Shown: positions 31,565 to 64,000 of the stretch, piece after piece
Numbering within the stretch: the stretch's first letter is position 1
Layout: the number at the start of each line of letters is the position of its first letter
DNA from: Acutalibacteraceae bacterium
GTDB taxonomy: Bacteria; Bacillota; Clostridia; Oscillospirales; Acutalibacteraceae
NCBI GenBank assembly: GCA_045591055.1
Contig: JAZNSD010000076.1
Span: forward strand, 32,481-96,480
DNA: 64,000 bases
Direction: 5' to 3'
Made by a program: the position numbers and the translations under genes
Notes under the pieces: model-generated
What the model saw: only the letters and a program-made list of their open reading frames with translations
Databases searched by the model: none
What the model was told of the DNA's origin: nothing

Positions 31565-32731
31565 TTATGTGTTTTTAATTTTTCTTTCCGTAATAAAATT
31601 ACAGATAAATACGCCGAGACACAATACGGCAAGAAGGAAGGGAGTTATTGCAAAGGTGGTGGCTGTAGCGGCAAAGCCGTAGACAAGCTGAATAAAAAAG
31701 CCTGCGGCATATGCCCCGCCCATATGGTAGCCTGTAAGGTCAGCCGAATATTTTTTTCCGAATCTGCGCGGAACACTGTGAAGTATTGTGGGGAATATGG
31801 GACCGAAGCCTGCACCTATAAGCAAAAATCCGGCAAGAGAATACTTTCCCAGAGGCAGTGCGAAAATAACGATTCCTGCAAAGGATGCAATTATTCCCAT
31901 CTGAATCAGGGTTTTGTCGGAAAGCTTTATTGAAGCAAAGCCTGCCACGATTCTTCCGAGCATTATTCCGCCGTAATAAAGAGAAACCCATTTTGCCGCC
32001 TCATCGGGAGCGATAAGGAAAGAATTTACGGCATAGGTAGCACCCCAGGTGCCCAGAGTAAATTCCATTCCGCAGTAAAGCCCCATAGAGAGAATACTTG
32101 TGAGGACGCCTCTTATTCTGAGCAGATCAAAAAGCTTTGCACTGCCCTTTTCTGCGTCTTCAGCTTCTGCCGCCGCAGATTTTTCTGTTTTTTCCCATTT
32201 TTTCAGCGACAGTATAATTACTGCCGTAATTGCAAGCTGCAGGAGTGCCACTATTCTGTAGCCGCCCCGCCAGGAGGATGTGTTATCGGACAAAAAGCCT
32301 GACATTATAAGGGGACTTATGGTCACTCCCAATCCCCAACAGCAATGCAGCCAGTTCATATGCCGTGCTTCATAGTGAAGAGAAACAAAGTTATTGAGTC
32401 CCGTATCTATAGCCCCTGCTCCGTAGCCTAAAAGTACGGAGAAAAGCATCATAACTACAATGTTGGGAGATATGCTTATTCCCAGAAGTGCAACAGCTGT
32501 GGTAAGCGTGGAAAACAGAGTTACCTTAGCCGTGCCGAAGCGCCGTAACAGCTTTCCTGCAACGAAGCTGACCCCGCCGGTGCATATTCCTGTTATGATG
32601 CTGTAAAAGGATGCGAAGCTTTCGGGAATTCCGAAATCGGTGTGTACCACGGGCCAGGCAACGCCGAAAAGAGAGTCGGGAAGCCCGAGGGACACAAAAA
32701 CAATATAAATTACAATGAGAAGAATTGCCAT
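31565..32731 (-). CDS. MFS transporter
   Basis: Start moved to MAILLIVIYIVFVSLGLPDS so that it does not overlap the upstream gene. 388 aa with about 12 TM segments. Confidence 0.75.
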   Translation of the reverse strand: MAILLIVIYIVFVSLGLPDSLFGVAWPVVHTDFGIPESFASFYSIITGICTGGVSFVAGKLLRRFGTAKVTLFSTLTTAVALLGISISPNIVVMMLFSVLLGYGAGAIDTGLNNFVSLHYEARHMNWLHCCWGLGVTISPLIMSGFLSDNTSSWRGGYRIVALLQLAITAVIILSLKKWEKTEKSAAAEAEDAEKGSAKLFDLLRIRGVLTSILSMGLYCGMEFTLGTWGATYAVNSFLIAPDEAAKWVSLYYGGIMLGRIVAGFASIKLSDKTLIQMGIIASFAGIVIFALPLGKYSLAGFLLIGAGFGPIFPTILHSVPRRFGKKYSADLTGYHMGGAYAAGFFIQLVYGFAATATTFAITPFLLAVLCLGVFICNFITERKIKNT

Positions 32732-48717: not shown

Positions 48718-50067
48718 TCAAATCCACTTAAGTGTGTTTTCAAGAGCGACGGAAGCACGAAGGATAAGTCTTGCATCACTTGCTTTGACTCCATCTCCGT
48801 CTATGTCAGCAGCCTTGAAGAATACCGAATCTACGTTATAGCTTTCAAGTCCGACGGACATCCTGAGTGTAAGTCGTGCGTCTGAAGCTGTTATGATACC
48901 GTTGCCGTCAATATCACCGGGACAAATGATTTCAAATTCCTTCCCAGAAGACATTAAAAGGGTCATCCCCGTACCTACGGCAGATTCATTTTTTATATTT
49001 TTTCCCGCACTGTCTTTTATGACAGCGGTATTTTCTGTGTGTGAAATCAGCTGTGCTGCTGTGACGGTTTCATTTTTTATAATGCAACCGTCGGCAAATT
49101 TTGCCTTTGCGCTGTTTTTGAAGTTGATGAAGTTTATTGTTGCCGAGGTTGATAAGCAGCTGTTTCCGTTTGCTTCAATAGTGATATTGTTCCATTGCTC
49201 TTTTGTCCCCAGATAATTAATTACCTTGAGCGATGGGCAAGTGTCAAAATTGTGTTCACCGATGTTTTTAACGCTTGAAGGTATTGTGACTTCAGTAAGT
49301 GAGGGGCAATTATTGACAGTGTACAGATGAATACTCTCAATGCCGTCAGGGAAAGTCAGTGTTTTGAGAGAGGTACAGCCTCTGAATGCAAGCATATCAA
49401 TAAATACTATGTTTGCAGGAAGTTCAATTTCTTCAAGGGCAGTGCAGCAGTCAAATGCAGATAACATAATTTTCTCTAATGTATCGGGAAGTATTACACT
49501 TCTGAGATTCTCGCAATTGCAGAAAGTATAGTCGGCAATCGTGGTGATTCCCGAAGGAATACTGATTTCTTCAATGCCGCTGCTTCGGAAGGCCTCGTCG
49601 GCTATGGATGTAAGGTTGGCAGGAAGTTTAATGCTCTTCAGGGCTGAACAACCAATAAAAGCTCCGCTTTCGATAGAAGTGACAGAATCCGGTAAAGTGA
49701 CTTCCCGAAGCTTTTGACATGAAGCAAAGGCACAGGAACTGACAGATGTAAAGCCTTCGGGCAATACAACGGTTTCTAATTGAGTGAAGGAAGAAAACAT
49801 ATTGGCGGCCATTGAGGTGACTCCGGAACTTATAATGATATTTTTTATTTCATTGATATGCGGGGCAATGTTTATGTCCTGCGTGATTTCACCGTTGCCG
49901 CGTATTGTAAGAGTTCCTGTTTCATCAAGAGTCCAACTGATATCCTTGTATGTGCCGTTTGTACTGACAGCAGCAAATGCAATTGTATAACTGTTGATTG
50001 TTGAAATTAATAAAATAATCAGGCAAAGAGTTACAGATATTTGACTTTTTAGTTTTCTTGTATACAT
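48718..50067 (-). CDS. Secreted BspA-type leucine-rich repeat protein with a C-terminal dockerin
   Basis: It has a signal peptide and repeated LP..(V/L)TSI...AF..C units. The C-terminal dockerin repeats are GDIDGNGIITASDARLTLRMSVG and ADIDGDGVKASDARLILRASVA. Confidence 0.8.
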   Translation of the reverse strand: MYTRKLKSQISVTLCLIILLISTINSYTIAFAAVSTNGTYKDISWTLDETGTLTIRGNGEITQDINIAPHINEIKNIIISSGVTSMAANMFSSFTQLETVVLPEGFTSVSSCAFASCQKLREVTLPDSVTSIESGAFIGCSALKSIKLPANLTSIADEAFRSSGIEEISIPSGITTIADYTFCNCENLRSVILPDTLEKIMLSAFDCCTALEEIELPANIVFIDMLAFRGCTSLKTLTFPDGIESIHLYTVNNCPSLTEVTIPSSVKNIGEHNFDTCPSLKVINYLGTKEQWNNITIEANGNSCLSTSATINFINFKNSAKAKFADGCIIKNETVTAAQLISHTENTAVIKDSAGKNIKNESAVGTGMTLLMSSGKEFEIICPGDIDGNGIITASDARLTLRMSVGLESYNVDSVFFKAADIDGDGVKASDARLILRASVALENTLKWI

Positions 50068-51557: not shown

Positions 51558-51706
51558 TAGTTTTTTAAATTTGTTTTTTATGACAAAAAAATTGCATTTT
51601 CTTTGTTGAAAACTCACTAAAATCTGAATTTAAAATCCTAATCCTTGAAATAACCTTTTTTATATGTTATTATATCTTGAACAATAATTCCTTAGGAGGG
51701 ACAGCG

Positions 51707-53290
51707 GTGGCAGATGAGAAGAATACTGCTCAGCAGTATACCGATGAACAGCTCGGTTATGTTTACGAAAACAGACGTTATGTAGGCACAAAAGAAACCG
51801 TAGGCTTTGTTCTCTGGGATGCGGCGCAGAGCCTTAATATCAACACCTATACAACCCGATTTATAACAAACATCGTTAAAATCGACCTTGGTTTTCAGAC
51901 CATTCAGAAAAGTATCAACAGCGTATGGGATATTGTAAACGATATCTTTATGGCAGCAATAGTTGAGAAAACAAGAACACGTTGGGGTAAGTTCAGACCT
52001 TATCTTTTAGGCCTTGCAATTCCCGGCTGTATTGCAACACTCTGCTATTGGTTTATGCCCATCTTTTTCTCAGGAACATCAGCAATGTCTGTTCCTAAGT
52101 TCATTTTCTATGTTCTCCTTGAGATTCTCCGTGAAGGTGTAGGAACCTTCCAGGGTATTGCAAGAACGGGTATGCTGGCGACCATAACGCCGCACCCTGT
52201 AGACCGAACGAGGCTTATCACCATCGCAAACTTTGCTTCGGGTACCTTCGGCGAAAAGCTCCCCGAGCAGATTATGACGGTTGTGCTCGACCTTATTGAT
52301 AACAATGTGTTCAAGCCCGGTAAGGGCGGCAGAGAAGCACAGTATCTTATGGCTTTTGTAGGTATGGGTGCTTTCACGACCATTGTTTCCTCCGGTATGT
52401 CCTTCTGGTTCTTTATGAATTCAAAGGAAAGAATCATGCAGTCTGTTCAGACTCCCAGTGTAATCGATTCGGTTAAATCTATTGTAAACAATAAGCCTGT
52501 TCTTCTTATGACCCTTGCCGATTTCCTTGCAGGCTTCGGTATTTCGGGCAGTAAGTCAGACTATTACATAGACGTTCTTCACTTTGCATCAATGACAATG
52601 CTTGCAGGTATTCCCGCAGCACCCCTGTCACCCGTTTCATTCTCATTCGTTCCCTGGTTCAGAAGACGCTTCTCTTCACGTTTCCTTTATATCGTAAGTA
52701 ATGAAATAGGAAGTATTCTTTACGTATTCGTATTCCTCTTCGGCTGTATCGGCTTCAATCCCAAGACCTTCAAGGGCGGTCTCTACAGAAATAAGTGGGC
52801 TATGCTCTTTGCTATGGCAACATGGGAGCTTATCTGGACTCTCTTCTACGGTCTTAAGTCTGTTATCGGCACAGAGCTTTACAATGAATCTATGGACTAC
52901 TGCGAATGGAAAAACGGCTACAGAACAGAGGCTATGACCTCCGTTGCAAAGGGTCTTGCAGCTAAGGTTTCTCAGGCTGTCAGCGGTGTTGTTACCACTG
53001 CTCTCAAGAAGTTTGTAGGCTATGATCAGAATGCTTACACTTCAGGTAAGGAACAGCCCGACTATGTTAAGTTCTACCTCTTCGCAATGTTCACGATCAT
53101 TCCCGTTATCACAGGCTCCTTCGGTGTTATACCCATGCTCTTCTATGACCTTAACGGTAAGAAGAAGGAAAGAATGTATGCTGAGCTTCTTCAGAGAAGA
53201 AAAGAAGCTGCTCTTGCTGCTTCCGATGAGGATGCAGAAGCTATTAGAGAGCTTGAAGAAAGACTCAAGGCAAGCAAGAATTCAAAGTAA
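51707..53290 (+). CDS. GPH-family (glycoside-pentoside-hexuronide:cation symporter-like) transporter, tandem paralogue A
   Basis: GTG start 7 nt after TAGGAGGG, chosen by alignment with paralogue B (both begin VAD.KNTA.QYTDEQ). It has the GPH motif DI(F/V)..AIVEKTRTRWGKFRPYLL and about 12 TM segments. Confidence 0.8.
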   Translation: MADEKNTAQQYTDEQLGYVYENRRYVGTKETVGFVLWDAAQSLNINTYTTRFITNIVKIDLGFQTIQKSINSVWDIVNDIFMAAIVEKTRTRWGKFRPYLLGLAIPGCIATLCYWFMPIFFSGTSAMSVPKFIFYVLLEILREGVGTFQGIARTGMLATITPHPVDRTRLITIANFASGTFGEKLPEQIMTVVLDLIDNNVFKPGKGGREAQYLMAFVGMGAFTTIVSSGMSFWFFMNSKERIMQSVQTPSVIDSVKSIVNNKPVLLMTLADFLAGFGISGSKSDYYIDVLHFASMTMLAGIPAAPLSPVSFSFVPWFRRRFSSRFLYIVSNEIGSILYVFVFLFGCIGFNPKTFKGGLYRNKWAMLFAMATWELIWTLFYGLKSVIGTELYNESMDYCEWKNGYRTEAMTSVAKGLAAKVSQAVSGVVTTALKKFVGYDQNAYTSGKEQPDYVKFYLFAMFTIIPVITGSFGVIPMLFYDLNGKKKERMYAELLQRRKEAALAASDEDAEAIRELEERLKASKNSK

Positions 53291-53371: not shown

Positions 53372-53467
53372 GTGGATTTATACAAAGATATTAATGCTTT
53401 ATTTTGTTGCACAGCCCGGCTTATTTATGTTAAAATAATAATATATCTGTAAATGGGAGGTTTTTTT

Positions 53468-55054
53468 GTGGCTGATGTAAAAAATACTGCTGAGCAATAC
53501 ACGGATGAGCAGACCGGTTATGTTTATGAAAACCGAAGATATGTGGGCTCAAAGGAAACGATGGGCTTTGTTCTCTGGGATGCTGCGCAGAGTCTTAATA
53601 TAAATACATACAGTACAAGATTTATTACCAATATTGTAAAAATCGATCTCAGCTATCAGACTATTGTCAAATCCGTAAACAGCGTTTGGGATATTATAAA
53701 CGATGTTTTCACCGCTGCAATAGTTGAAAAAACAAGAACCCGCTGGGGTAAGTTCAGACCCTATCTTCTTGCGCTTGCCGTGCCGGGCTGTATTATGACA
53801 TTGCTTTATTGGTTTATGCCTATTCTTTTTGCAGGTCAGCCTGCTATGTCTGTAAGCAAATTTATTTTTTATATGGCTCTTGAGATCCTGCGCGAGGGAG
53901 TGGGTACCTTCCAGGCTATCGCAAGAACAGGTATGCTTGCCACCATAACGCCGCATCCCGTAGACAGGACGAGACTTATCACCATTGCAAACTTTGCCTC
54001 GGGCTTCTTCGGTGAAAAGCTGCCCGAGCACGGTATGACCATACTTCTTGACCTTATTGACAATAAGGTATTCAAAAACGGAATGTCCCACGAAAATCAG
54101 CTGATGGGCGCTTTCGTCGGTATGGGTGCCGCAACAACCATTATTTCATCGGGTATGTCTTTCTGGTTCTTTATGAATTCAAAGGAAAGAATCATGCAGT
54201 CAGTCAAAACTCCCGGTATAAAGGATTCGCTCAGGTCAATTGCAAATAATAAGCCAATGCTGCTTATCACCCTTTCAGATTTCCTCGCAAACTTCGGTAT
54301 TTCGGGAAGTAAGCAGGACTACTATATAGACGTTCTTCATTTCGCATCTATGACACTTGTTGCAGGTCTTCCCGCAGCACCCTTGTCGCCCATATCCTAT
54401 TCATTCGTTCCCTGGTTCAGAAGAAGATTTTCTTCTCGTCTTCTTTATATAGTGAGCCGTAATATAAGCCACTTCCTCCACATTTTCGTTTTCATCTTCG
54501 GCTGTATCGGCTTCAATCCCAAGACCTTCAAGGGCGGTCTTTACAGAAAGAAGCTTCCCATGTTCTTTGCAATGGCGTTGTGGGAGCTTATCTGGACTAT
54601 ATTCTACGGACTTATGTCTGTTATCGGCACAGAGCTTTACAATGAATCTATGGACTACTGTGAATGGAAAAACGGCTACAGAACAGAGGCTATGACCTCT
54701 GTTGCAAAGGGGCTTGCCGCAAAGGTTTCAGGCTCTGTAAGCGGTGTTGTTACCACAGCCCTCAAAAAGATGGTAGGCTACGACCAGAATGCCTACACAA
54801 AGGGCGAAGAGCAGCCTGACTATGTTAAGTTCTATCTCTTTGCAATGTTCACAATTGTCCCCGCCGTAACAGGTACACTGGGTATTATCCCCATGCTTTT
54901 CTATGACCTTCACGGCAAGAAGAGAGAAACCATGTATGCAGAGCTTCTTCAGAGAAGAAAAGAAGCCTCCCTTTCCGCCTCCGAGGGCGACCTTGAAGCG
55001 GTAATGGCGATGGAAGAAAAGCTCAAAGCAATAAGAGACGGCAAACACCGCTAA
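53468..55054 (+). CDS. GPH-family transporter, tandem paralogue B
   Basis: GTG start after GGGAGG. It is near-collinear with paralogue A and shares long identical blocks, e.g. ESMDYCEWKNGYRTEAMTSVAKGLAAKVS. Confidence 0.8.
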   Translation: MADVKNTAEQYTDEQTGYVYENRRYVGSKETMGFVLWDAAQSLNINTYSTRFITNIVKIDLSYQTIVKSVNSVWDIINDVFTAAIVEKTRTRWGKFRPYLLALAVPGCIMTLLYWFMPILFAGQPAMSVSKFIFYMALEILREGVGTFQAIARTGMLATITPHPVDRTRLITIANFASGFFGEKLPEHGMTILLDLIDNKVFKNGMSHENQLMGAFVGMGAATTIISSGMSFWFFMNSKERIMQSVKTPGIKDSLRSIANNKPMLLITLSDFLANFGISGSKQDYYIDVLHFASMTLVAGLPAAPLSPISYSFVPWFRRRFSSRLLYIVSRNISHFLHIFVFIFGCIGFNPKTFKGGLYRKKLPMFFAMALWELIWTIFYGLMSVIGTELYNESMDYCEWKNGYRTEAMTSVAKGLAAKVSGSVSGVVTTALKKMVGYDQNAYTKGEEQPDYVKFYLFAMFTIVPAVTGTLGIIPMLFYDLHGKKRETMYAELLQRRKEASLSASEGDLEAVMAMEEKLKAIRDGKHR

Positions 55055-55392: not shown

Positions 55393-58300
55393 ATGAGAAA
55401 TGTTAAAGGAATTATTTCTGTATTACTTTCAATTATATTGATATCAGCAACTTGTTCCGTTGCTCTTCCTGTTTTTGCATATGAAATATTATCAGATAAT
55501 GATGCATTGACGAAAGAAAACAATTTGGCAAATGAGAGGCAGACTGAAATTATAAGCGAAGTAAAAGAGCTTCGGGAGGAATATGTCAAGCACTTTAAGA
55601 TGAGTGACGGTACATATCAGGCGGTTGTGTATAGCTCTCCTGTACACTATAAAGAAAACGGAAAATGGCAAGAAATTGATACAGGTATAAAAGAAAGCAC
55701 TTCTGCAACTAAAAATAGTGAAAAATTTTATGCCAATGTAGCAGATACAGAATTTTTATTCCCGGACAAAATAACAAACGGTGAACTGATTAAAATAAAA
55801 AAGAACGGTAATGAGATATCTTTCGGTTATAAAGAGAATATTGATTCCGTTTTTTCATCAGCAGTAATAACAGAATCTTCGGAATTCCAAAAATATGAAG
55901 ATGATAAAAAGACTGATAGCGAAACATTAAAAACTGAAGTTTCACAGGATATTCTGAAGTATAACAATGTTTCAGGGAAAATTGATTTTGAATATGAACT
56001 GAATTCCTCTATGTTAAAAGAAAGCATTATTATTCCTGACAAACAAGAGGAATATGTGTATGAGTTCAGTTTCAATATAGGCGAACTTACACCTGTTGCA
56101 AATCAAGACGGCTCAATATCTCTTATTGATAAAGAAAATAATGACAGTCTCGAATATGTTATTGCATCGCCTTTTATGATTGATGCGAACGGTATTTTTT
56201 CTGACAGTGTCACTATGACAATGACTTTATCAGACGGAGAATATATACTCACTGTAACGGCAGATGAAAATTGGCTGAATGATGAAAGCAGGGAGTTTCC
56301 TGTGGTTATCGACCCTACTTTATTATACAAGCCTGACAGGGTTAATGACATTTTTGATACTTACACAGACAGCGGTGCTCCAACAGTAAATCATTACCTT
56401 TCAACATACGCTATTATCGGTCATAATAGCCTCGGAACAGGAAGAACTTATATAAAATTTAATTTACCTTCTTTGCCTCATTGCGGAGTTATAATCAATG
56501 CAACTTTGGGACTTTTGCAGATGGGTTTTGATCCCGGTAATGGGGTTACAAATCATATGGTTGTATATGAAAGTCCTGCAAGTCAGAATTATCAGACACT
56601 TACATGGAATAATCAGCCCTCGTTGGATAATCAGCCGATAGTTGACTACACGGAGTTTATTTCAGGATCAAACGGCAGTGTGTTTTATACTCTTGATATA
56701 ACGAAAATTGCAAAAAAATGGTTTGAGGACGGCATAAATAATGGTTTGTTCCTTGCTTCTGCAAATGAAAGCAGCTCATGGCGTTCTACAATTTATACAT
56801 CAAATTATACAGGCTATGATGTATATCCTATGATAAGTATTTCATATATGGACAATAAAGGAATTGAAGATTATTGGTCATACGAAACAATAGATATGGG
56901 ACGCTCAGGTACGGTTTTTATCAATGAATATAATGGTCTGTTAACTTATGTGCATACTGATATAGCTCTAGGAGGAAATATCACTTCTCTTACAGCTTCA
57001 CATATTTATTCTAATGAACACAATGAATCAGGTGCACCTTACGGATACGGATTCAGAGTTTCAGCTCAGGAAAAAATAAGTCTAATTTCATCCGGGGATT
57101 TATATGATGAAGGCTACAGAGCATATCTGACCGATGCAGATGGTACTGTTCATTATTTCAAGTATGAAAACAGCAGTACAATGAAGTATGAATTTGATGA
57201 TAATCTGATACTGAAAAGTATATCGGGACAGACTTATAAATATGAACTGCAATATGAGGACGGCAGTAAAAGAAGATATGATTCATCAGGAAAATTGCTT
57301 TCGATTTCAGATAGCAACGGAAATACAATTACATACACCTATGACAGTTCGGGCAGAATAAATAAAATAACAGATGCAGCGAACAGAAGTGTTACATATA
57401 ATTATGATTCAAGCGGTTATCTTTCCTCTTTTACGGATGCGGCAGGAAGAAATACTGTATATTCATATGATAACGGATATTTGCGCACCATAACTTATCC
57501 CGACGGAAAGACAACAGTGTTGACATATCTTTCAGAAAAATTATTCAATATAAAGCAAGTTGATTCCACAAATGTATCTTTTTTGTACAGGACATCAGAC
57601 AGAGTTAATTTTATTTCGGTAAAAGGAACGGATTCTGCTGTTCTGAAAACAATTAATTTTTCTTTTCAAGGTGCCAATACTGTTGTTTCGGATTCGACCG
57701 GCAGAAGTGTAACTGTTGGCTTTGACAATATGGGACGTGCTGTGAGCCGTTCTGACAATGACGGAAATATTTCAACTGCAAAGTATGCTTCGGAAGGTAA
57801 TAAAAATAATAAGATGACTGAAAATTCTGATGTTTTTTCATTTTCTGACAATAAGCTACTTAATCATAGTTTTGAGGCTGAGTTTTCCGATTGGAAAATC
57901 TGGAAGCCCAGCGGTACAAATTCACACAGTGTAGTTACTTCACAGGCTTTTGTCGGCTCAAAATCTCTGAAACTTACTTGCTCTGCAGAAGGAAAAATTG
58001 TTGCACTTCAGGATCTGACAGATTTTGAGATCGGAAAAGAATATACCCTGTCCGCATATGTAAAGGCAACTTCATTAAGCGGAACAAAAACATCTGTAAG
58101 AATTGAAGGAAAGGATTCTTCAGGTACTGTGTCCAGAAATTCCTCTCCCTGGATAAATGCAGCTACGGACGGTTGGGTACGTTTGCAGGTGTCATATACT
58201 GTTCCTGCCGGTGTAACATATATACGTATCTGTCTGGAATTACAGGGGGCATCAGGAACTGTGTATTATGATGCATTGCAGTTTGAAGAAGCATCTGCTG

Positions 58301-61300
58301 CAGGTCATTATAATCTTTTAACAAATCCGGGATTTGAAAGACATTCCTCAAATACTTTTTCAGGTTGGACAGCTTCCGGAACAGTTTCCTATGCATCAGG
58401 TATAATAAACACTTCCGGCAGTGTCGGCATATCGGGTTCCCCTTCCTCTAATGCCCGTCTTGTACAAAGTGTTATTATAGGATCGTCTTCAGAAAACAGA
58501 ACTTTGATTTTCGGCGGTGCAGTAAAAGGAAATTGTGCAGCAACAAGTAATACTGAGGACAGTAATGCCAAAATAGGTTTATTGCTTGAATTGTATTCAG
58601 GGTCAAGTCTTGTTTCATCAAAAAATATTGACTACAATCCTTATGCCATTGAAACGGTGCAATTACTGACAGACAGTATTACGGCAAACAGCTCTGTTAA
58701 TGAGATAAAGCTTTATTTGTTGTATGACAAAAATGTAAATACTTCGTATTTTGATAATATGTTTATTTATATTGATAATTACGGAACAAAATATGAATAT
58801 AATGCAGACGGTAAACTGATAAAACAGAGTAATGATGCAGGTGATGCGATTTCCTATACATATCTGGGTGCAGATATAACGAAAATATCAATTACAAAAG
58901 ACGGAGAGGAAAAGGATTCGTATACCTATACTTATGATGATAATCATAACATTTTGACAGAGACAACCAAGGATGGTATAATTACAACATATACATATCC
59001 TGAAAGCGGCAACAGAGGTATGCCCACTTCTGTAACAGTCAGAGATTCAGCCGGTACGCTTCAGAGCAGTTTAACATATACTTATTCATCAAACTATAAT
59101 TATATCAGAACAGTTACTGATGCGAGAGGAAATACCACTTTGACAGTCTACAGTCCCACAAAGGGGTATCTTACGTCCGAGACTGATGCAAATGGTATTC
59201 GCTATATTTATTCTCATGATGCTTACAGTGATGAATTGCTTGAAGTATACACCGAAAATGATGACGGCTTTTTCGATGTTGTTTACAGATATAATGATAA
59301 CGGTCAATTGTCTTCTGTTGAACAGGATAATGTAACCTATAGCTTAACATACGATAATTTTTCAAGAAGAACCTCAACCAAGGTCGGCTCCCAGACACTT
59401 GCTTCTTATTCATATAATGTAAGAGGTCTTCTGGGAGCTACAACCTATGGTAACGGAACCATACATTCACTTACATATGATAATTCCGACAGAATTATCA
59501 GTGAAGCTTATGACGGAACGGTCGCATATTCCTATGCATATAACACAGAGGGATATCTTGGCAAGGTAACAGATCACGAGCTTGATATTACAACGTATTA
59601 CGACTATGACCTTGTGGGCAGGGTTACTGATGTTGACAGCACTGACGGTGTGTCCTCAGATTTTTCCTATAACGAGTACAACAGTATTGCTTCTTACTCT
59701 GTAAAAAAAGATAATTCTGTTGTTTCAGCTGCTGAATATACGTATACATCCGACGGATTGCCTGAAACAGTTGAACTTGCCGGTTTTCAGGAACCTGAGT
59801 TTCTGTATGCTTATGATGAGCTTAACCGCAGAACAGACAGTTATCACTTTTTAAGCGGTTCTCCCATAAAGGTTGAATATTCATATCTTGACGGCGAAGA
59901 TTCAGAAACAACAGGACTTGTCAGCAACATATTGTATTCTGATACCGGATATAGGTATATGCCGAAATTATCGTATACATATGATGCAAAAGGAAATATA
60001 CGTACAGTTTCTGAAAATGATGTGCTTAATCTGACTTATACCTACGACAGCCTTGACAGACTTGTCAGAGAGGATAATAAGGACCTTGATGAAACGATTG
60101 TGTATACTTACGATGAAAGAGGAAATATACTTTCCAAAAAGTATTATGATTACACAACAGGGGATGTCGGTGCTCTTAATGATGAAATAATCTATAGCTA
60201 TGACAGTGTATGGAAGGATAAACTGATTTCATATAATGGCTTATATATTGAATATGACAGCATAGGCAATCCTACAGTTTACCGTGGAATTGACCTTAAT
60301 TGGCAGAAGGGCAGACAGTTAGAATCCATAGGGTATAATGGTACAGAGCTGTTGACCTTTGAGTATAATGCTGAAGGACTTCGTACAAAAAAATCCTATT
60401 ATTACGGAGATACAACAACATATACCTGGTCTTCGGGACTTCTGATGCAGCAGACTGACGGAACAAATACGCTTAAATTCAGCTATTCCCCCGACGGAAG
60501 ACCGCTCGGAGTAATCTTTAACGGTACATCATATTATTATATCTATAATTTACAGGGTGATGTAATCGGTATATATGATTATTTAGGTTCTGTTGTTGTG
60601 GAATATACCTACGACAGCTGGGGAAATATCACTGATACAGAAGGCAGCCTTGCTTACACGCTCGGAAATCTTAATCCCTTCAGATACAGAGGCTATATTT
60701 ATGACGAAGAAACCGGATTATACTGGCTTCGCTCAAGATACTACGACCCCATGACCGGAAGATTCCTGAACGGGGATATATATGTGTCTACCGGACAAGG
60801 GATGAATGGGTATAATATGTTTGCGTATTGTGGTAATAATCCGGTGAAGAACTCTGATTGCGAAGGTGAATGCTACTATAATTCATGTGGTCGCTGGTCA
60901 CATGACAATTGGGAGAATATTGGCGATTATGAAAAGAAACCAGAACCTAACGCCTATACAGATAAAACAAATTCAGGTAAAAATATTTATATTTCTACCG
61001 AAAGTAGTTATTCAGTTGCATATGGTGATGTGCAAATTATTGATAAGCGTGATACAAATATGACCGACGGAAAGCATAATCCTGATATTAAAATTATTAA
61101 TTCTTATTTAATCAACAATGAAAATGTTCAGAAAGAAATTATTCGAATTATTAAAGAATATAACCAGAGCGTGCCCTCTTTTTACAAATGGGAAAGAAGT
61201 GAGAAATCTTTGTTAAAAGAGTGGGAAATTCACAATACTGTTTGTTGGACAGGTTTTGCTTTTGATAATACGGCACATGTTGATTTTGATGTGTTTGATG

Positions 61301-61368
61301 AGGGAAAAGGTTATATTGCTTTTTGCTATGAGAGAATTATAAAGCCTCTTTGGAAAAATAAAGGGTGA
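55393..61368 (+). CDS. Rhs/YD-repeat polymorphic toxin (Sec signal peptide, DNRLRE-like domain, two CBM4/9-like modules, YD-repeat shell, unassigned C-terminal toxin domain)
   Basis: The signal peptide is MRNVKGIISVLLSIILISATCSVALPVFA. DNRLRE-like region: GRTYIKFNLPSLP...TWNNQPSL. There are many YD repeats (YTYDSSGRINKITDAANRSVTYNYDSSGYLSSFTDAAGR etc.). The Rhs core end reads FRYRGYIYDEETGLYWLRSRYYDPMTGRF...FAYCGNNPV. About 165 further residues have no family I recognise. Confidence 0.9.
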   Translation: MRNVKGIISVLLSIILISATCSVALPVFAYEILSDNDALTKENNLANERQTEIISEVKELREEYVKHFKMSDGTYQAVVYSSPVHYKENGKWQEIDTGIKESTSATKNSEKFYANVADTEFLFPDKITNGELIKIKKNGNEISFGYKENIDSVFSSAVITESSEFQKYEDDKKTDSETLKTEVSQDILKYNNVSGKIDFEYELNSSMLKESIIIPDKQEEYVYEFSFNIGELTPVANQDGSISLIDKENNDSLEYVIASPFMIDANGIFSDSVTMTMTLSDGEYILTVTADENWLNDESREFPVVIDPTLLYKPDRVNDIFDTYTDSGAPTVNHYLSTYAIIGHNSLGTGRTYIKFNLPSLPHCGVIINATLGLLQMGFDPGNGVTNHMVVYESPASQNYQTLTWNNQPSLDNQPIVDYTEFISGSNGSVFYTLDITKIAKKWFEDGINNGLFLASANESSSWRSTIYTSNYTGYDVYPMISISYMDNKGIEDYWSYETIDMGRSGTVFINEYNGLLTYVHTDIALGGNITSLTASHIYSNEHNESGAPYGYGFRVSAQEKISLISSGDLYDEGYRAYLTDADGTVHYFKYENSSTMKYEFDDNLILKSISGQTYKYELQYEDGSKRRYDSSGKLLSISDSNGNTITYTYDSSGRINKITDAANRSVTYNYDSSGYLSSFTDAAGRNTVYSYDNGYLRTITYPDGKTTVLTYLSEKLFNIKQVDSTNVSFLYRTSDRVNFISVKGTDSAVLKTINFSFQGANTVVSDSTGRSVTVGFDNMGRAVSRSDNDGNISTAKYASEGNKNNKMTENSDVFSFSDNKLLNHSFEAEFSDWKIWKPSGTNSHSVVTSQAFVGSKSLKLTCSAEGKIVALQDLTDFEIGKEYTLSAYVKATSLSGTKTSVRIEGKDSSGTVSRNSSPWINAATDGWVRLQVSYTVPAGVTYIRICLELQGASGTVYYDALQFEEASAAGHYNLLTNPGFERHSSNTFSGWTASGTVSYASGIINTSGSVGISGSPSSNARLVQSVIIGSSSENRTLIFGGAVKGNCAATSNTEDSNAKIGLLLELYSGSSLVSSKNIDYNPYAIETVQLLTDSITANSSVNEIKLYLLYDKNVNTSYFDNMFIYIDNYGTKYEYNADGKLIKQSNDAGDAISYTYLGADITKISITKDGEEKDSYTYTYDDNHNILTETTKDGIITTYTYPESGNRGMPTSVTVRDSAGTLQSSLTYTYSSNYNYIRTVTDARGNTTLTVYSPTKGYLTSETDANGIRYIYSHDAYSDELLEVYTENDDGFFDVVYRYNDNGQLSSVEQDNVTYSLTYDNFSRRTSTKVGSQTLASYSYNVRGLLGATTYGNGTIHSLTYDNSDRIISEAYDGTVAYSYAYNTEGYLGKVTDHELDITTYYDYDLVGRVTDVDSTDGVSSDFSYNEYNSIASYSVKKDNSVVSAAEYTYTSDGLPETVELAGFQEPEFLYAYDELNRRTDSYHFLSGSPIKVEYSYLDGEDSETTGLVSNILYSDTGYRYMPKLSYTYDAKGNIRTVSENDVLNLTYTYDSLDRLVREDNKDLDETIVYTYDERGNILSKKYYDYTTGDVGALNDEIIYSYDSVWKDKLISYNGLYIEYDSIGNPTVYRGIDLNWQKGRQLESIGYNGTELLTFEYNAEGLRTKKSYYYGDTTTYTWSSGLLMQQTDGTNTLKFSYSPDGRPLGVIFNGTSYYYIYNLQGDVIGIYDYLGSVVVEYTYDSWGNITDTEGSLAYTLGNLNPFRYRGYIYDEETGLYWLRSRYYDPMTGRFLNGDIYVSTGQGMNGYNMFAYCGNNPVKNSDCEGECYYNSCGRWSHDNWENIGDYEKKPEPNAYTDKTNSGKNIYISTESSYSVAYGDVQIIDKRDTNMTDGKHNPDIKIINSYLINNENVQKEIIRIIKEYNQSVPSFYKWERSEKSLLKEWEIHNTVCWTGFAFDNTAHVDFDVFDEGKGYIAFCYERIIKPLWKNKG

Positions 61369-61373
61369 TGATA

Positions 61374-61823
61374 ATGGAAAAAATAAAAAAATATATCGGG
61401 TTGTTTTACTTTTTTGTTAATGCGGTAATTCAGATCAGTTTTTTTAGCTACTATTTTCCCGAATTCGGCAATTTTGACAAATATTTGCAATATGGCGGTT
61501 TCTTTGATTCCTTTTTGCTGTGGCTTTTTGCTGAAGGTGTTTTTGGTGATAATATTTCGCTTCGATATCTTGTTTTGGTCCTTGTTATTTTATATGTTGT
61601 GAGTTTGGTGCTATTTTTTATTGCTTTGTTTTTTAGCAGAAAAATTGTATATTCCATTTTGTTATCTCACTGCATTCTGAATGTAATTTTTCATTTTATT
61701 CTTTTGTCAGATAAACCATATGCATTCATAGGGTTGATATTTAAGATTATAGGTTGTTGTATCTATCTATACTGCCTGAAAAAAATCAAAGAAAAAAATC
61801 AAGGGACGGTTAGAAACCACTGA
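61374..61823 (+). CDS. Putative cognate immunity protein (149 aa, about 4 TM helices)
   Basis: It starts 6 nt after the Rhs stop; alternative starts GTG 61365 and ATG 61368 overlap the stop. Four long hydrophobic segments are visible. This is the typical immunity position in polymorphic toxin loci. Confidence 0.6.
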   Translation: MEKIKKYIGLFYFFVNAVIQISFFSYYFPEFGNFDKYLQYGGFFDSFLLWLFAEGVFGDNISLRYLVLVLVILYVVSLVLFFIALFFSRKIVYSILLSHCILNVIFHFILLSDKPYAFIGLIFKIIGCCIYLYCLKKIKEKNQGTVRNH

Positions 61824-61940
61824 AAAAGTGATGTTTTAAGCGGTCGCAAAAGTCAAAAATCTTGTCTTGATTTTGTTCAAAGAGAAGATTGTTAAAATTC
61901 TCATACAAAGTGAAAAAATTGACGAGTTTAGCGGTATTTT

Positions 61941-62106
61941 CTATGCCGAAAGTGCCGCTATTCTTTTCAAGTTAACTGCTATTGCGGTTAGTTTTGCTTG
62001 AAAGGTAGTGCTTCGCAGTCCCCAGCCTCTGGCTCGGGACATTCCGTGAAAAAACACGGGGCGGTTCTGTGATTGTGAAATAAATTCACAGTATTGTTGA
62101 ATTATA
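61941..62106 (-). mobile_element. Remnant of the C-terminus of a DDE transposase (IS1182/IS5-like)
   Basis: Minus-strand translation gives ...NRPVFFHGMSRARGWGLRSTTFQAKLTAIAVNLKRIAALSA*. This matches the conserved HG(L/M)R.AR.RGL......LTA.A.NLKR.A tail of these transposases. An upstream in-frame stop means only about 50 codons remain. Confidence 0.55.
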
Positions 62107-62210
62107 TTACATTAATCGTCCCTTGGCTTCATCTATTGTAAGCTATACTTATACTGATAAGACAAATCAGTCGATTGACAGGGGTAAGTTACTATATAGC
62201 TCAGAAAACA

Positions 62211-62276
62211 TAAGCAATCATAGAACCGTCCCCTGATTTTGTTTAAGCAATCATAGAACCGTCCCCTGATTTTGTT
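62211..62276 (+). repeat. Perfect 33-bp direct tandem duplication (2 copies)
   Basis: TAAGCAATCATAGAACCGTCCCCTGATTTTGTT occurs at 62211..62243 and again at 62244..62276. Confidence 0.95.
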
Positions 62277-62378
62277 TTTGGATGTGATGAGGCGCCAGAA
62301 GTACATGTTCCCGGATATGGGCATTATCATGACCCAAAACATGCATTTCATATTTGGTTTGGCGATAAAATAACATAA
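62247..62378 (+). pseudogene. Start-less 43-codon reading frame, possible orphan toxin C-terminal tail
   Basis: AIIEPSPDFVFGCDEAPEVHVPGYGHYHDPKHAFHIWFGDKIT* opens right after a TAA with no ATG/GTG/TTG. It ends 13 nt before the next ORF, which is a toxin-tail/immunity arrangement. Confidence 0.3.
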
Positions 62379-62391
62379 AAAGGATATTATT

Positions 62392-62961
62392 ATGAAAATT
62401 TTGATTAAATATTTTATCGATGAATGTCTATGCTATCCGTTTGATCAGAGTTGCAGATATTTTTGTATTAATAATCAAAAATTTTACCGCGATGTGAAGC
62501 TTACTGTGAACAACTCGAAGAACCATAGAATAAAATATCTTCTTCCCATAGTCAGAATTAATATCATTGAATTGATGGAAAATTATTTAAAAGCTTTGAA
62601 CATTGAAAAGGATGAGGTTATACATTCGTCAAAAATGCAAGAGCCCGATAATGTCAATTGGAATGAGAATGAAGCAATCGCTTTCGATGTTGCCTTCCGC
62701 ATTTTTATTGACGGCAGATATTATGTTAAAGACGGAAAAGAAACAGATATGGTTACAGATTGGTGCAATTATAAAAATTCCGTGTGTTTACCTATTATAA
62801 AAAAGTGGTGTGCGGAAAACGGCATAAAATGGTATGATGATAAATTCTCTCATTTTTTTTACAAATGGCATAACCCTTTCGTTTATAAAGCGGACAAGAA
62901 CGATGTTTTTGAAGTAATTGATTATCCCGGTTGCTACAGTTTTGTTGAAATTCCAAAATAA
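62392..62961 (+). CDS. Hypothetical cytoplasmic protein, candidate orphan immunity protein
   Basis: 189-aa ORF, AT-rich, with no TM segments and a weak RBS (AAAAGGAT). I recognise no family. Its position is downstream of an Rhs locus. Confidence 0.45.
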   Translation: MKILIKYFIDECLCYPFDQSCRYFCINNQKFYRDVKLTVNNSKNHRIKYLLPIVRINIIELMENYLKALNIEKDEVIHSSKMQEPDNVNWNENEAIAFDVAFRIFIDGRYYVKDGKETDMVTDWCNYKNSVCLPIIKKWCAENGIKWYDDKFSHFFYKWHNPFVYKADKNDVFEVIDYPGCYSFVEIPK

Positions 62962-63073
62962 TAATGAGAGAAAATCAATTATGAAACGGTTTTGTGAATC
63001 GTTAAGCTTATAATATAGGAAGAGTAAGACAAGGGGCATAGCTTTATCGGTTTTTTAGCTTAAAGGAGTTAAT

Positions 63074-63434
63074 ATGGATTAGGATTGTTTTTTTGATATT
63101 AAAGAAAATTATAATGAATTTATAGATTTTGCTTTATCTTTAAGTGATTATATTACATTTCATATTGGTCATTATGATATACTGTCACCTGAAAGTTTTA
63201 CCATCAACAACTCTTTATGATAAAAATAATATTAAAATTGACGTCGAGAATCCGGGCGGTAGAAATGGACAGATTCATATGCACTATAAAGGTAATAAAT
63301 ATTTTTATCATGTATCACAACAAAAGTTTGTTTTGGAGAATGGAGATTTGGCTTCAAAAAGTATACAGGAATTGTTAAATAATGAAGCCGTTGTTAAGGC
63401 TATTGCGAAGGGATTGGTATATCTTGGATATTAA
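63074..63434 (+). pseudogene. Apparently disrupted small gene (TAG at codon 3 plus a frame switch)
   Basis: AAAGGAG, 6 nt, then ATG GAT TAG. The same frame continues protein-like (DCFFDIKENYNEFIDFALSLSDYITFHIGHYDILSPESFTINNSL*) to 63220. The +1 frame carries on as YDKNNIKIDVENPGGRNGQIHMHYKGNKYFYHVSQQKF...AIAKGLVYLGY* to 63434. Confidence 0.4.
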
Positions 63435-63855
63435 TAAAAAAGAGATTGCCTGTTTATTGTTCCCGAAATTTAAATGTGTCAGGGATAAGTCAGGCTATGA
63501 ATTTGTTGTGTTTCAGCAAAGTAGTGTTACAAATGATTTTGAAAAAAGTATGTTCTGTGATAAAACATCTTTTGAAGCATTTGAAAATCATATTCATATT
63601 TTGGATGGTATCAGCAAAACAGAGCTGTACGTATTAGAGAGTATAAGCAGAAAACTGTGCAAATACTATGTGAAGTTGTTGGCTGATCAATTTCCGGATA
63701 AAAGATTTGCTGTTTGTGTTTCATTGAAAGAAAACGATTCAATGATTTTTCGTTTTCATCAATGCCACGAAGAGGAACCTCTTTATTTGCAGGAAGGAAA
63801 ATGGGAGGACGGATCAATTGTAATTGTTGAGTTGTCAGATCAGGCAGAAGACTGA
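63382..63855 (+). CDS. Hypothetical cytoplasmic protein, candidate immunity protein
   Basis: 157-aa ORF. A TTG at 63424 would give about 143 aa and overlap the upstream stop by only 11 nt. It is soluble and acidic at the C-terminus. I recognise no family. Confidence 0.45.
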   Translation: MKPLLRLLRRDWYILDINKKEIACLLFPKFKCVRDKSGYEFVVFQQSSVTNDFEKSMFCDKTSFEAFENHIHILDGISKTELYVLESISRKLCKYYVKLLADQFPDKRFAVCVSLKENDSMIFRFHQCHEEEPLYLQEGKWEDGSIVIVELSDQAED

Positions 63856-63922
63856 CACCGGACGGACAGAAATCATTGCAGGTTTATATGAAGATAGTTC
63901 AGTTGCTATTGTTGAGGTGCAT

Positions 63923-64000
63923 ATGAAAGATTTAAAAAGTATTGCAAAAATATTTACTGAAGAAGCCGATTTGTTTTTGATTGATCATTATCCGTTTGTT
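63923..64000 (+). CDS. Hypothetical protein, 3' end outside the window
   Basis: GAGGTG RBS, then ATG and MKDLKSIAKIFTEEADLFLIDHYPFV... running off the window edge. Confidence 0.4.
   Translation, partial: MKDLKSIAKIFTEEADLFLIDHYPFV

Follow-up and report, generated by a model that had tools for sequence, protein, structure and literature searches.

A candidate Rhs/WapA-type toxin locus of an Acutalibacteraceae bacterium, with an apparently unnamed C-terminal domain and a putative polytopic membrane immunity protein

Contig JAZNSD010000076.1 of an Acutalibacteraceae bacterium (Bacillota, Clostridia; NCBI GenBank assembly GCA_045591055.1) carries, within the 64,000-nucleotide (nt) stretch analysed here (positions 32,481 to 96,480 of the forward strand, hereafter the window), a large Rhs gene directly followed by a small gene for a membrane protein. 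In Rhs/WapA loci the variable C-terminal domain is the toxin and the small adjacent gene is its immunity gene. A preliminary description, made from the sequence letters and translations, had read the two genes in this way. The features of the locus, in window coordinates and with residues (aa, amino acids) of the Rhs protein in brackets, are the following.

55393..61368 (+): Rhs/WapA-type polymorphic toxin gene (1,991 aa and stop codon), from the open reading frame (ORF) list and Pfam/NCBIfam matches
55393..55482 (+): putative N-terminal Sec-type signal sequence (aa 1-30, MRNVKG...PVFA, cut before YE), by hydropathy, with the cleavage site placed by eye
56356..56829 (+): DNRLRE surface domain (aa 322-479), NCBIfam NF033679, E 3.9e-18
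57850..58290 (+): CBM4/9-like (carbohydrate-binding) module 1 (aa 820-966), Pfam CBM_4_9 over aa 820-951, E 2e-12
58309..58776 (+): CBM4/9-like module 2 (aa 973-1128), indirectly, by hhalign to module 1
60610..60867 (+): Rhs repeat-associated core (aa 1740-1825) ending ...AYCGNNPVKNSDCEGE, TIGR03696, E 2.4e-17
60871..60951 (+): junction motif CYYNSCGRWSHDNWENIGDYEKKPEPN (aa 1827-1853), common to many unrelated toxin tips
60952..61365 (+): candidate toxin domain 'EWxxHN' of an unnamed family (aa 1854-1991), from a HMMER family, conservation and an AlphaFold2 (AF2) model
61374..61823 (+): putative cognate immunity gene for a 149-aa polytopic membrane protein, from hydropathy, homology, position and an orphan copy
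61929..61960 (+): terminator-like hairpin with a 13-bp stem and T-rich tail, ~105 nt past the immunity gene, by consensus scan

The Rhs reading frame extends from 55375 or 55393 to 61368 on the forward strand. AGGAAAAGG precedes the ATG at 55393, and the ORF counted from this ATG measures 5,976 nt; the 1,991-aa product matches the deposited NCBI protein P0003 exactly. In a Kyte-Doolittle scan MRNVKGIISVLLSIILISATCSVALPVFA, followed by YE and with a basic n-region before it, is the only strongly hydrophobic, transmembrane (TM)-like stretch of the whole protein. Downstream of the DNRLRE domain lie the YD/RHS repeats (Pfam RHS_repeat, E 4.6e-31 in six stretches; TIGR01643 [YD_repeat_2x], E 6.9e-20), and these lead to the Rhs core, which stands directly before the variable C-terminus. 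Of the DPxG-x18-DPxG pattern that demarcates the toxin tip in Rhs proteins, the first motif is present as YYDPMTG. At the position of the second, the window protein has DCEG and its homologues have DPSG, DPMG, DILG or DVLG (DxxG). Neither PAAR nor LXG domains were found in the Rhs protein with Pfam and NCBIfam, and the ORF list of the window holds no ORF of EssC size apart from the Rhs gene itself. The signal peptide, DNRLRE-like region and Rhs core end picked out in the preliminary description are all borne out by these data, and its proposal of Sec export is consistent with the hydrophobic N-terminus, with the lack of PAAR and LXG domains and with the lack of another ORF of EssC size. By its architecture the locus would be a WapA-type Rhs polymorphic toxin, a kind of system that is already known. 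A weak, sub-threshold match to GMP_PDE_delta (E 0.0023) lies at 55876-56202 (aa 162-270), between the signal peptide and DNRLRE.

Two CBM4/9-like modules had also been proposed within the YD region, and both can be substantiated. Module 1 scores 48.1 bits against a Pfam gathering cut-off of 25.9 (PF02018); its bounds (aa 820-966) were set by us and exceed the Pfam span. Module 2 gives no direct Pfam match. It is homologous to module 1 in a profile-profile comparison (hhalign probability 97.7%, E 1.4e-12, 150 columns) made with alignments of both modules from five homologous Rhs proteins, and the orthologous module 2 of one homologous Rhs protein matches CBM_4_9 at E 5.4e-6. Repeats lie on both sides of the pair: upstream the first RHS_repeat match (aa 629-664) and visible YD repeats, downstream further visible YD repeats.

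The last 165 aa of the protein (1827-1991, nt 60871-61365) had been taken as one domain matching no toxin family. The lack of a match stands; the single domain does not, as the tail consists of a shared junction motif of ~27 aa and a domain of ~138 aa. Located directly 3' of the Rhs core, the junction has the consensus C[YFW][YFW]..G.W.HD.WE..G.Y.[RK]KPxP and is without a Pfam model. In Clostridia genomes and human-gut metagenomes it stands ahead of 14 BLAST clusters of C-terminal bodies, about ten of which are full-length and mutually unrelated (loci L017-L025 and L035-L090). The metagenomes were scanned with patterns of the junction motif only, and thus yielded mostly other toxin types together with three loci bearing the full-length domain. 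Of these sibling tips, 26 loci have a 'DDPGN..GYVG' type and 22 loci one that is glycine-rich and of beta type. Others, judged by eye, include PG_binding-like repeats, one GH19/lysozyme-like and one HExxH domain, and domains that are glycine-rich and hydrophobic; TM-containing ORFs follow many of the sibling tips. The junction motif is possibly specific to this clade of Rhs proteins, where it may mark a recombination or processing boundary or serve as a translocation element, and it can be used as a handle with which to mine more toxin tips in gut metagenomes.

For the C-terminal 165 aa no Pfam match was found at E<=10 and nothing in NCBIfam or PHROGs, and PDB sequence profiles returned nothing below E 0.1, the matches there (eL28, THAP, DARPins) being at chance level. 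A word-indexed protein search with the tip gave one relative, P0001 (179 aa, 45% identity); this kind of search is insensitive here, having missed the toxin's own deposited protein despite its presence in the collection. Exhaustive HMMER searching of 1.84 billion cluster representatives with a two-sequence profile gave 549 matches at E<=1e-3 and 182 at E<=1e-10, and with clusters formed at 50% identity the family comprises at least 549 clusters. Forty diverse members share no consistent Pfam family at E<=1, and 31 members from an annotated search carry no Pfam domain and no name beyond 'hypothetical protein'. Among the top 150 representatives 41 have the domain directly behind an Rhs core signature, in full-length Rhs proteins or in orphan fragments made up of a core end plus tip, and at least 53 are proteins of 90-230 aa (mostly 140-190 aa) which start with a hydrophobic signal or anchor.

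Conservation was taken from an alignment of 40 sequences and a hidden Markov model (HMM) alignment of 178 members. The conserved residues of the tip are D1884, R1886, S1904, W1933, R1935, E1943, W1944, H1947, N1948, D1964 and E1970; in the conservation data they are numbered with Cys1827 as residue 1. In the 178 members E117, W118 and H121 are 100% conserved, S78 99%, and N122, W107, R109, D58 and R60 98% each, followed by E144 (92%) and D138 (87%, otherwise Asn). Because the near-invariant residues are polar (D, R, S, R, E-W-x-x-H-N, D, D/E) we infer that the tip is an enzyme, with a hydrolase-type or metal-dependent active site. An AF2 model of the tail, made with the family alignment as input, reached a mean predicted local distance difference test (pLDDT) score of 85.2 and a predicted template modelling score of 0.76. 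In the model four short strands are followed by two long helices, the second of which bears E-W-x-x-H-N; a further short strand lies at the DxD motif, and a C-terminal helix completes the fold. The junction part is weak (pLDDT ~64-66), residues 1-30 being the least confident. A hydropathy scan found neither a hydrophobic helical hairpin nor a glycine-rich hydrophobic segment in the tip, and no TM-like window outside the signal peptide.

Foldseek comparison of the tip model with the PDB gave no match (best E 1.4, TM-score 0.26), and the viral structures gave one marginal and uninformative match to an uncharacterised crAss-like protein (E 7e-4, TM-score 0.39, root-mean-square deviation 10.9). 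For the named toxin families (Ntox, Tox-*, nuclease, ADP-ribosyltransferase [ART], deaminase, lipase and peptidoglycan hydrolase) there is no significant profile match in Pfam or NCBIfam to the tip or its relatives. With Pfam, NCBIfam, PHROGs, PDB-sequence and PDB-fold searches all lacking a confident match, this would be a previously unnamed toxin domain whose predicted structure is unmatched in the PDB. Several candidate families were considered and rejected. The matches to PI-PLC-X are weak and at chance level, one member reaching a Pfam E of 0.096 and Foldseek aligning about 20 columns. The order R60, S78, E117 fits an R-S-E ADP-ribosyltransferase; E117 is helical, though, and no ART fold was retrieved. 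An HNH or beta-beta-alpha-metal nuclease is contradicted by the position of 'HN' inside a long helix, and neither the HD dyad of phospholipase A2 nor a lysozyme-like or glycoside hydrolase (GH) fold has Foldseek or profile support.

The downstream membrane ORF has three candidate starts. Two of them, GTG 61365 and ATG 61368, overlap the stop codon of the toxin (61366-61368), and the third, ATG 61374, lies 5 nt past it. Its product measures 149-152 aa depending on the start. A 149-aa protein with four hydrophobic helices, starting at the toxin stop, had been described before; its size, position and four strongly hydrophobic helices are as stated, and the hydropathy scan refines the picture by a further helix which is amphipathic and moderately hydrophobic. 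The total number of terminator-like hairpins in this region is not above chance, and only the position of the one behind the membrane gene is suggestive. Rfam finds nothing in 55-64 kb.

Searched with the word-indexed method, the membrane protein retrieves itself alone. P0001, the relative found with the tip, is an orphan cassette which starts ...MYAYCGNNPV and lies within a toxin/immunity-like gene array (Imm26, ankyrin, deaminase). A 143-aa polytopic protein is encoded 23 nt after it and is 26% identical to the membrane protein of the window (E 5e-5, z 11.8 against shuffles). Further Rhs-linked loci came from one genome per species, scanned with six close tip sequences, and from the metagenome collection. 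An ORF of 138-183 aa with four to five TM helices directly follows or overlaps the tip in the window and in L001, L010, L011 (with L033 and L034), L012, L014, L015, L026 and L032, that is, in nine of ten independent Rhs-linked lineages; L013 stops at the contig edge. Orphan cassettes occur in L001 and L026. The membrane proteins of the window, L001, L010 and L011 are homologous to one another (z 5.6-12.9 versus shuffles), and an HMM of these four did not detect those of L012, L014, L015 and L026, or the second ORF of the L027 locus treated below, above shuffled controls. Co-occurrence of the domain and the TM ORF had been set beforehand as a test, and it was found in these nine lineages, with demonstrable homology of the membrane proteins in the four closest. 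Between lineages the membrane protein is 18-30% identical as against 39-52% for the toxin tip, and within the L011/L033 lineage the figures are 88-89% and 94%; such faster divergence of the membrane protein would be the usual behaviour of an immunity protein.

Assembly GCA_045538645.1 (L027) encodes P0181, a protein with 88% aa identity to the membrane protein and in the same 90% cluster as P0002. L027 shares with the window, in synteny and at 77-81% nt identity, the MFS_2 transporter located ahead of the Rhs gene; the Rhs gene itself is absent from the stretch of L027 that was fetched. L027 6907-7412 corresponds to window 61311-61813 at 91% nt identity, and contains the last 57 nt of the toxin ORF and the intact membrane gene. 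An intact gene with a toxin stub, more conserved than the housekeeping gene that flanks it, has the appearance of the expected footprint of an orphan immunity gene; the 91% against 77-81% suggests recent transfer or selection on the immunity gene. With this orphan copy it is less likely that the membrane ORF is just a bystander. A second, unrelated 140-aa ORF with four TM helices lies just upstream (L027 6439-6861). As a separate observation, a 72-nt non-coding stretch (window 62049-62120, L027 6827-6898) is 90% identical between the two loci; its place is 3' of the immunity gene in the window and 5' of the toxin remnant in L027, and it may be a cassette boundary or a recombination sequence.

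Many members of the EWxxHN family stand alone and have an N-terminal signal or anchor; the stand-alone proteins end before the last helix of the tip model. In three genomes the gene of a ~220-aa subfamily shows a 4-nt overlap with the stop codon of a ~600-aa DUF2264/BcGHD (GH154-like) gene (L008 3187-5678, L028 2202-4657, L029 2196-4747), and the product of the latter gene is predicted to be cytoplasmic, having no signal peptide. BcGHD/GH154 is among the subjects of PMC12269599. For a second subfamily, of ~173 aa, the upstream neighbours are a radical-SAM/SPASM gene, two unknown genes and one of the YdjM family, an order kept in two assemblies (L005 1164-5522, L031 157-4528). These contexts hint at envelope or glycan housekeeping.

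We favour the interpretation that the locus encodes a Sec-exported polymorphic toxin together with its cognate membrane immunity protein, and that the tip is probably an enzyme working at the outer face of a membrane or on the envelope; for this explanation as a whole we would put the probability at roughly 60%. Its best-founded component, the identity of the system as an Rhs toxin with cognate immunity, is very probable, and for enzymatic action of the tip outside the cytoplasm we consider the odds to be about even. Guided by its N-terminal signal, the 1,991-aa protein would leave the cell along the general Sec pathway and be displayed at the surface, where DNRLRE and the two CBM4/9-like modules probably add surface or glycan contacts. 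In Rhs proteins the C-terminal toxin is enclosed by the repeats and cut off by the core domain. In the present protein the YD repeats would fold into such a shell around the tip, and the aspartyl protease of the core would be expected to cut after ...NSDCEGE, releasing a fragment composed of the junction motif (CYY..G.W.HDNWE..G.Y.KKPEP) and the ~138-aa alpha/beta domain. The tip would then most likely act outside the cytoplasm, on the outer face of the target membrane or on an envelope component, and the 149-aa membrane protein with its four to five helices may protect the producer at the membrane, either by binding and occluding the toxin or by shielding its substrate.

That the toxin acts on the envelope, as the preliminary description had it, is still something we infer, and two findings have made the case stronger: stand-alone relatives are in many cases secreted or membrane-anchored by nature, and the sibling tips behind the junction motif include, by eye, cell-wall-directed and membrane-directed types. 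The partner protein, which lies almost entirely within the membrane, points the same way. Several points weigh against the interpretation. The Sec signal is judged by hydropathy alone, and DCEG replaces the DPxG motif which normally marks the Rhs cleavage site. One Rhs-linked locus (L023) has no clear polytopic ORF downstream, and in five of the nine paired lineages the membrane proteins are alike in size, position and topology only, without sequence similarity above shuffles. The AF2 model of the membrane protein, from a two-sequence run and used for the helix count only, has five helices at low confidence (pLDDT 55). In the loci inspected, including L016, stand-alone members have no adjoining immunity-like gene, so that the fold would not be intrinsically lethal to its producer and a housekeeping role is possible. 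The organism, a Gram-positive member of the gut or rumen Clostridia, is apparently known from assemblies alone. Finally, Bacillus subtilis WapA reportedly delivers tRNases which act in the cytoplasm, and Sec export by itself therefore does not imply a target in the envelope.

This last precedent also bears on an alternative which we hold to be unlikely, in which the tip is a cytoplasm-acting enzyme (a nuclease, or a modifier of nucleotides or proteins) imported like the B. subtilis tRNases, with the membrane protein blocking entry by occlusion of a receptor or translocon. WapA-type Rhs proteins can carry such toxins, and a conserved set of D, R, S, E, H, N and D/E would be as fitting in a nuclease or phosphoesterase as in an enzyme of the envelope. 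Immunity to cytoplasmic toxins is normally soluble, however, and the partner here is almost wholly membrane-embedded in nine lineages; in addition, the signal- or anchor-bearing small proteins among the top 150 representatives (at least 53) are without a delivery module, which would place this fold outside the cytoplasm, and the tip has no fold or profile similarity to nuclease, ART or deaminase families. On the other side, Streptococcus suis WapA-CT1 and CT2 are nuclease-like and toxic in the cytoplasm of Escherichia coli (PMC12704120). Less probable again is a non-enzymatic tip that disrupts or depolarises membranes. An immunity protein of about 150 aa with four TM helices is the classic partner of membrane-targeting toxins, and the glycine-rich hydrophobic sibling tips are likewise followed by TM ORFs; yet the present tip has neither a hydrophobic helical hairpin nor a glycine zipper, its predicted fold is a compact alpha/beta one, and its invariant residues (E, H, N, D, R, S) are polar or charged, as is typical of active sites and not of pore formers.

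It is very improbable that the C-terminal domain is no toxin at all but a surface, glycan-processing or adhesion module on an Rhs scaffold, beside an unrelated or accessory membrane ORF. The stand-alone relatives lacking immunity-like neighbours would fit this, as would the translational coupling of one subfamily to a cytoplasmic DUF2264/GH154-like gene in three genomes, which hints at housekeeping. Against it, the domain sits exactly at the variable-toxin position of Rhs proteins and is swapped with other tip types, some of them toxin-like by eye, behind a common junction; orphan cassettes of core end plus tip occur inside toxin/immunity arrays with Imm26, ankyrin and deaminase genes; and the membrane ORF co-varies with the domain and persists as an orphan, beside a toxin remnant, in a genome from which the Rhs gene is missing. 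Within the favoured interpretation, that of a Sec-exported toxin with membrane immunity, a more specific form is possible but doubtful: a new enzyme fold would attack a membrane-embedded molecule of the Gram-positive envelope from outside (for example an undecaprenyl-linked precursor of cell wall or teichoic acid, lipoteichoic acid or a phospholipid head group) and be neutralised in the membrane by the protein with four to five TM helices, the stand-alone relatives being housekeeping ancestors acting on the same class of substrate and the junction motif a clade-specific signal for cassette swapping and/or release in Sec-exported Rhs toxins.

WapA-type Rhs proteins use Sec. With B. subtilis WapA and S. 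suis WapA-CT1 the window protein shares the N-terminal Sec signal, the YD-repeat shell, the Rhs-associated core and the variable C-terminal toxin followed by an immunity gene, with orphan tip/immunity cassettes in related loci. S. suis WapA combines a Sec signal and a DNRLRE domain with an Rhs shell and a C-terminal toxin part (CT), and requires its signal sequence for killing (PMC12704120); sharing DNRLRE as well, it would be the closest characterised example and a precedent for Sec export. Unlike WapA, the window protein has no LysM or other recognised wall-anchoring repeats and has two CBM4/9-like modules inserted in its repeat region; its second DPxG motif is DCEG, its tip belongs to an uncharacterised family and is not a tRNase or DNase, and its putative immunity protein is polytopic and not soluble. 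Gene annotation covered the flanks of the Rhs gene and ~37.6-50 kb of the window, and in this stretch no adjoining srtB or secF-like genes were found.

Small polytopic immunity proteins go most often with membrane-targeting toxins, examples being those of the pore-forming colicins (Cai/Cei), of CdiA-CT(EC93) (CdiI) and of TspA (TsaI). The present locus resembles these in the multi-TM immunity protein of ~150 aa encoded directly downstream and in the orphan immunity copies of other genomes, and it differs from pore-forming colicins, CdiA-CT(EC93) and TspA in its predicted polar, compact alpha/beta tip with active-site-like invariant residues and no hydrophobic hairpin. Envelope-acting tips with membrane immunity are also found in the Lipocone superfamily, where immunity of the four-TM type is listed for Min-Wnt toxins; its members, which include TelC, Min-Wnt and CapCone, form a cone of four helices with a conserved His, Glu and Asp on H2, H3 and H4, respectively (PMC12419801). 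Likeness to TelC/TipC (lipid II phosphatase) and other Lipocone systems lies in a secreted toxin predicted to be extracytoplasmic, an Asp/Glu-rich conserved motif and a membrane-located immunity protein. In contrast, the tip model has a four-strand beta-sheet followed by helices in place of a four-helix cone, E117 and H121 share one helix, and stand-alone members are without the last helix. Membership of the Lipocone/TelC group was rejected, the AF2 model and the conservation pattern having no such cone and Foldseek against the PDB returning no TelC.

As a kind of system the locus is not new and leaves the known logic of polymorphic toxin systems unchanged. Sec-exported Rhs toxins of Gram-positive gut anaerobes have been barely explored by experiment, and it offers a testable toxin/immunity pair whose sharply conserved, active-site-like residues are open to direct mutation. 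The EWxxHN fold also occurs in ordinary secreted or anchored proteins of Clostridia, providing a link to ordinary cell biology; the substrate of the toxin, once found, would annotate hundreds of hypothetical proteins in this class.

Downstream of the immunity gene a 33-nt unit (TAAGCAATCATAGAACCGTCCCCTGATTTTGTT) is perfectly duplicated in tandem at 62211-62276. The reverse complement of this unit matches the 3' end of the immunity gene (61785-61811; 27 nt, 85%), and the duplication looks like the scar of an inverted fragment from a related gene end. GC content falls to 33% in 62000-64000. Three ORFs here, at 62392-62961 (189 aa), 63144-63434 (96 aa) and 63382-63855 (157 aa), have no significant matches (E<0.09) in Pfam, NCBIfam or PHROGs, and might represent additional orphan toxin/immunity cassettes or other mobile cargo.

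Upstream of the Rhs gene the annotated stretch contains transporter, translation-factor, ribosomal-protein and polysaccharide-synthesis genes. Directly adjacent are two tandem paralogous transporter genes (51677-53290, 537 aa; 53453-55054, 533 aa); the gene syntenic to them in L027 carries the annotation MFS_2. At 48718-50067 the reverse strand encodes a surface protein of the BspA-type LRR_5 kind (E 7.6e-79); its C-terminus shows by eye two dockerin-like repeats (DIDGNGIITASDARLTLR and DIDGDGVKASDARLILR), and Pfam at E<=1e-5 lists no dockerin. Between ~37650 and 48270, 5-18 kb upstream of the Rhs gene, lies a biosynthesis cluster for a surface polysaccharide or a polymer of the teichoic-acid type. 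No type VII secretion system genes were seen in it, and its genes specify GT2 glycosyltransferases, a Wzy-like polymerase, a UDP-galactopyranose mutase, a TagF-like glycerophosphotransferase, a flippase and a nucleotidyltransferase.

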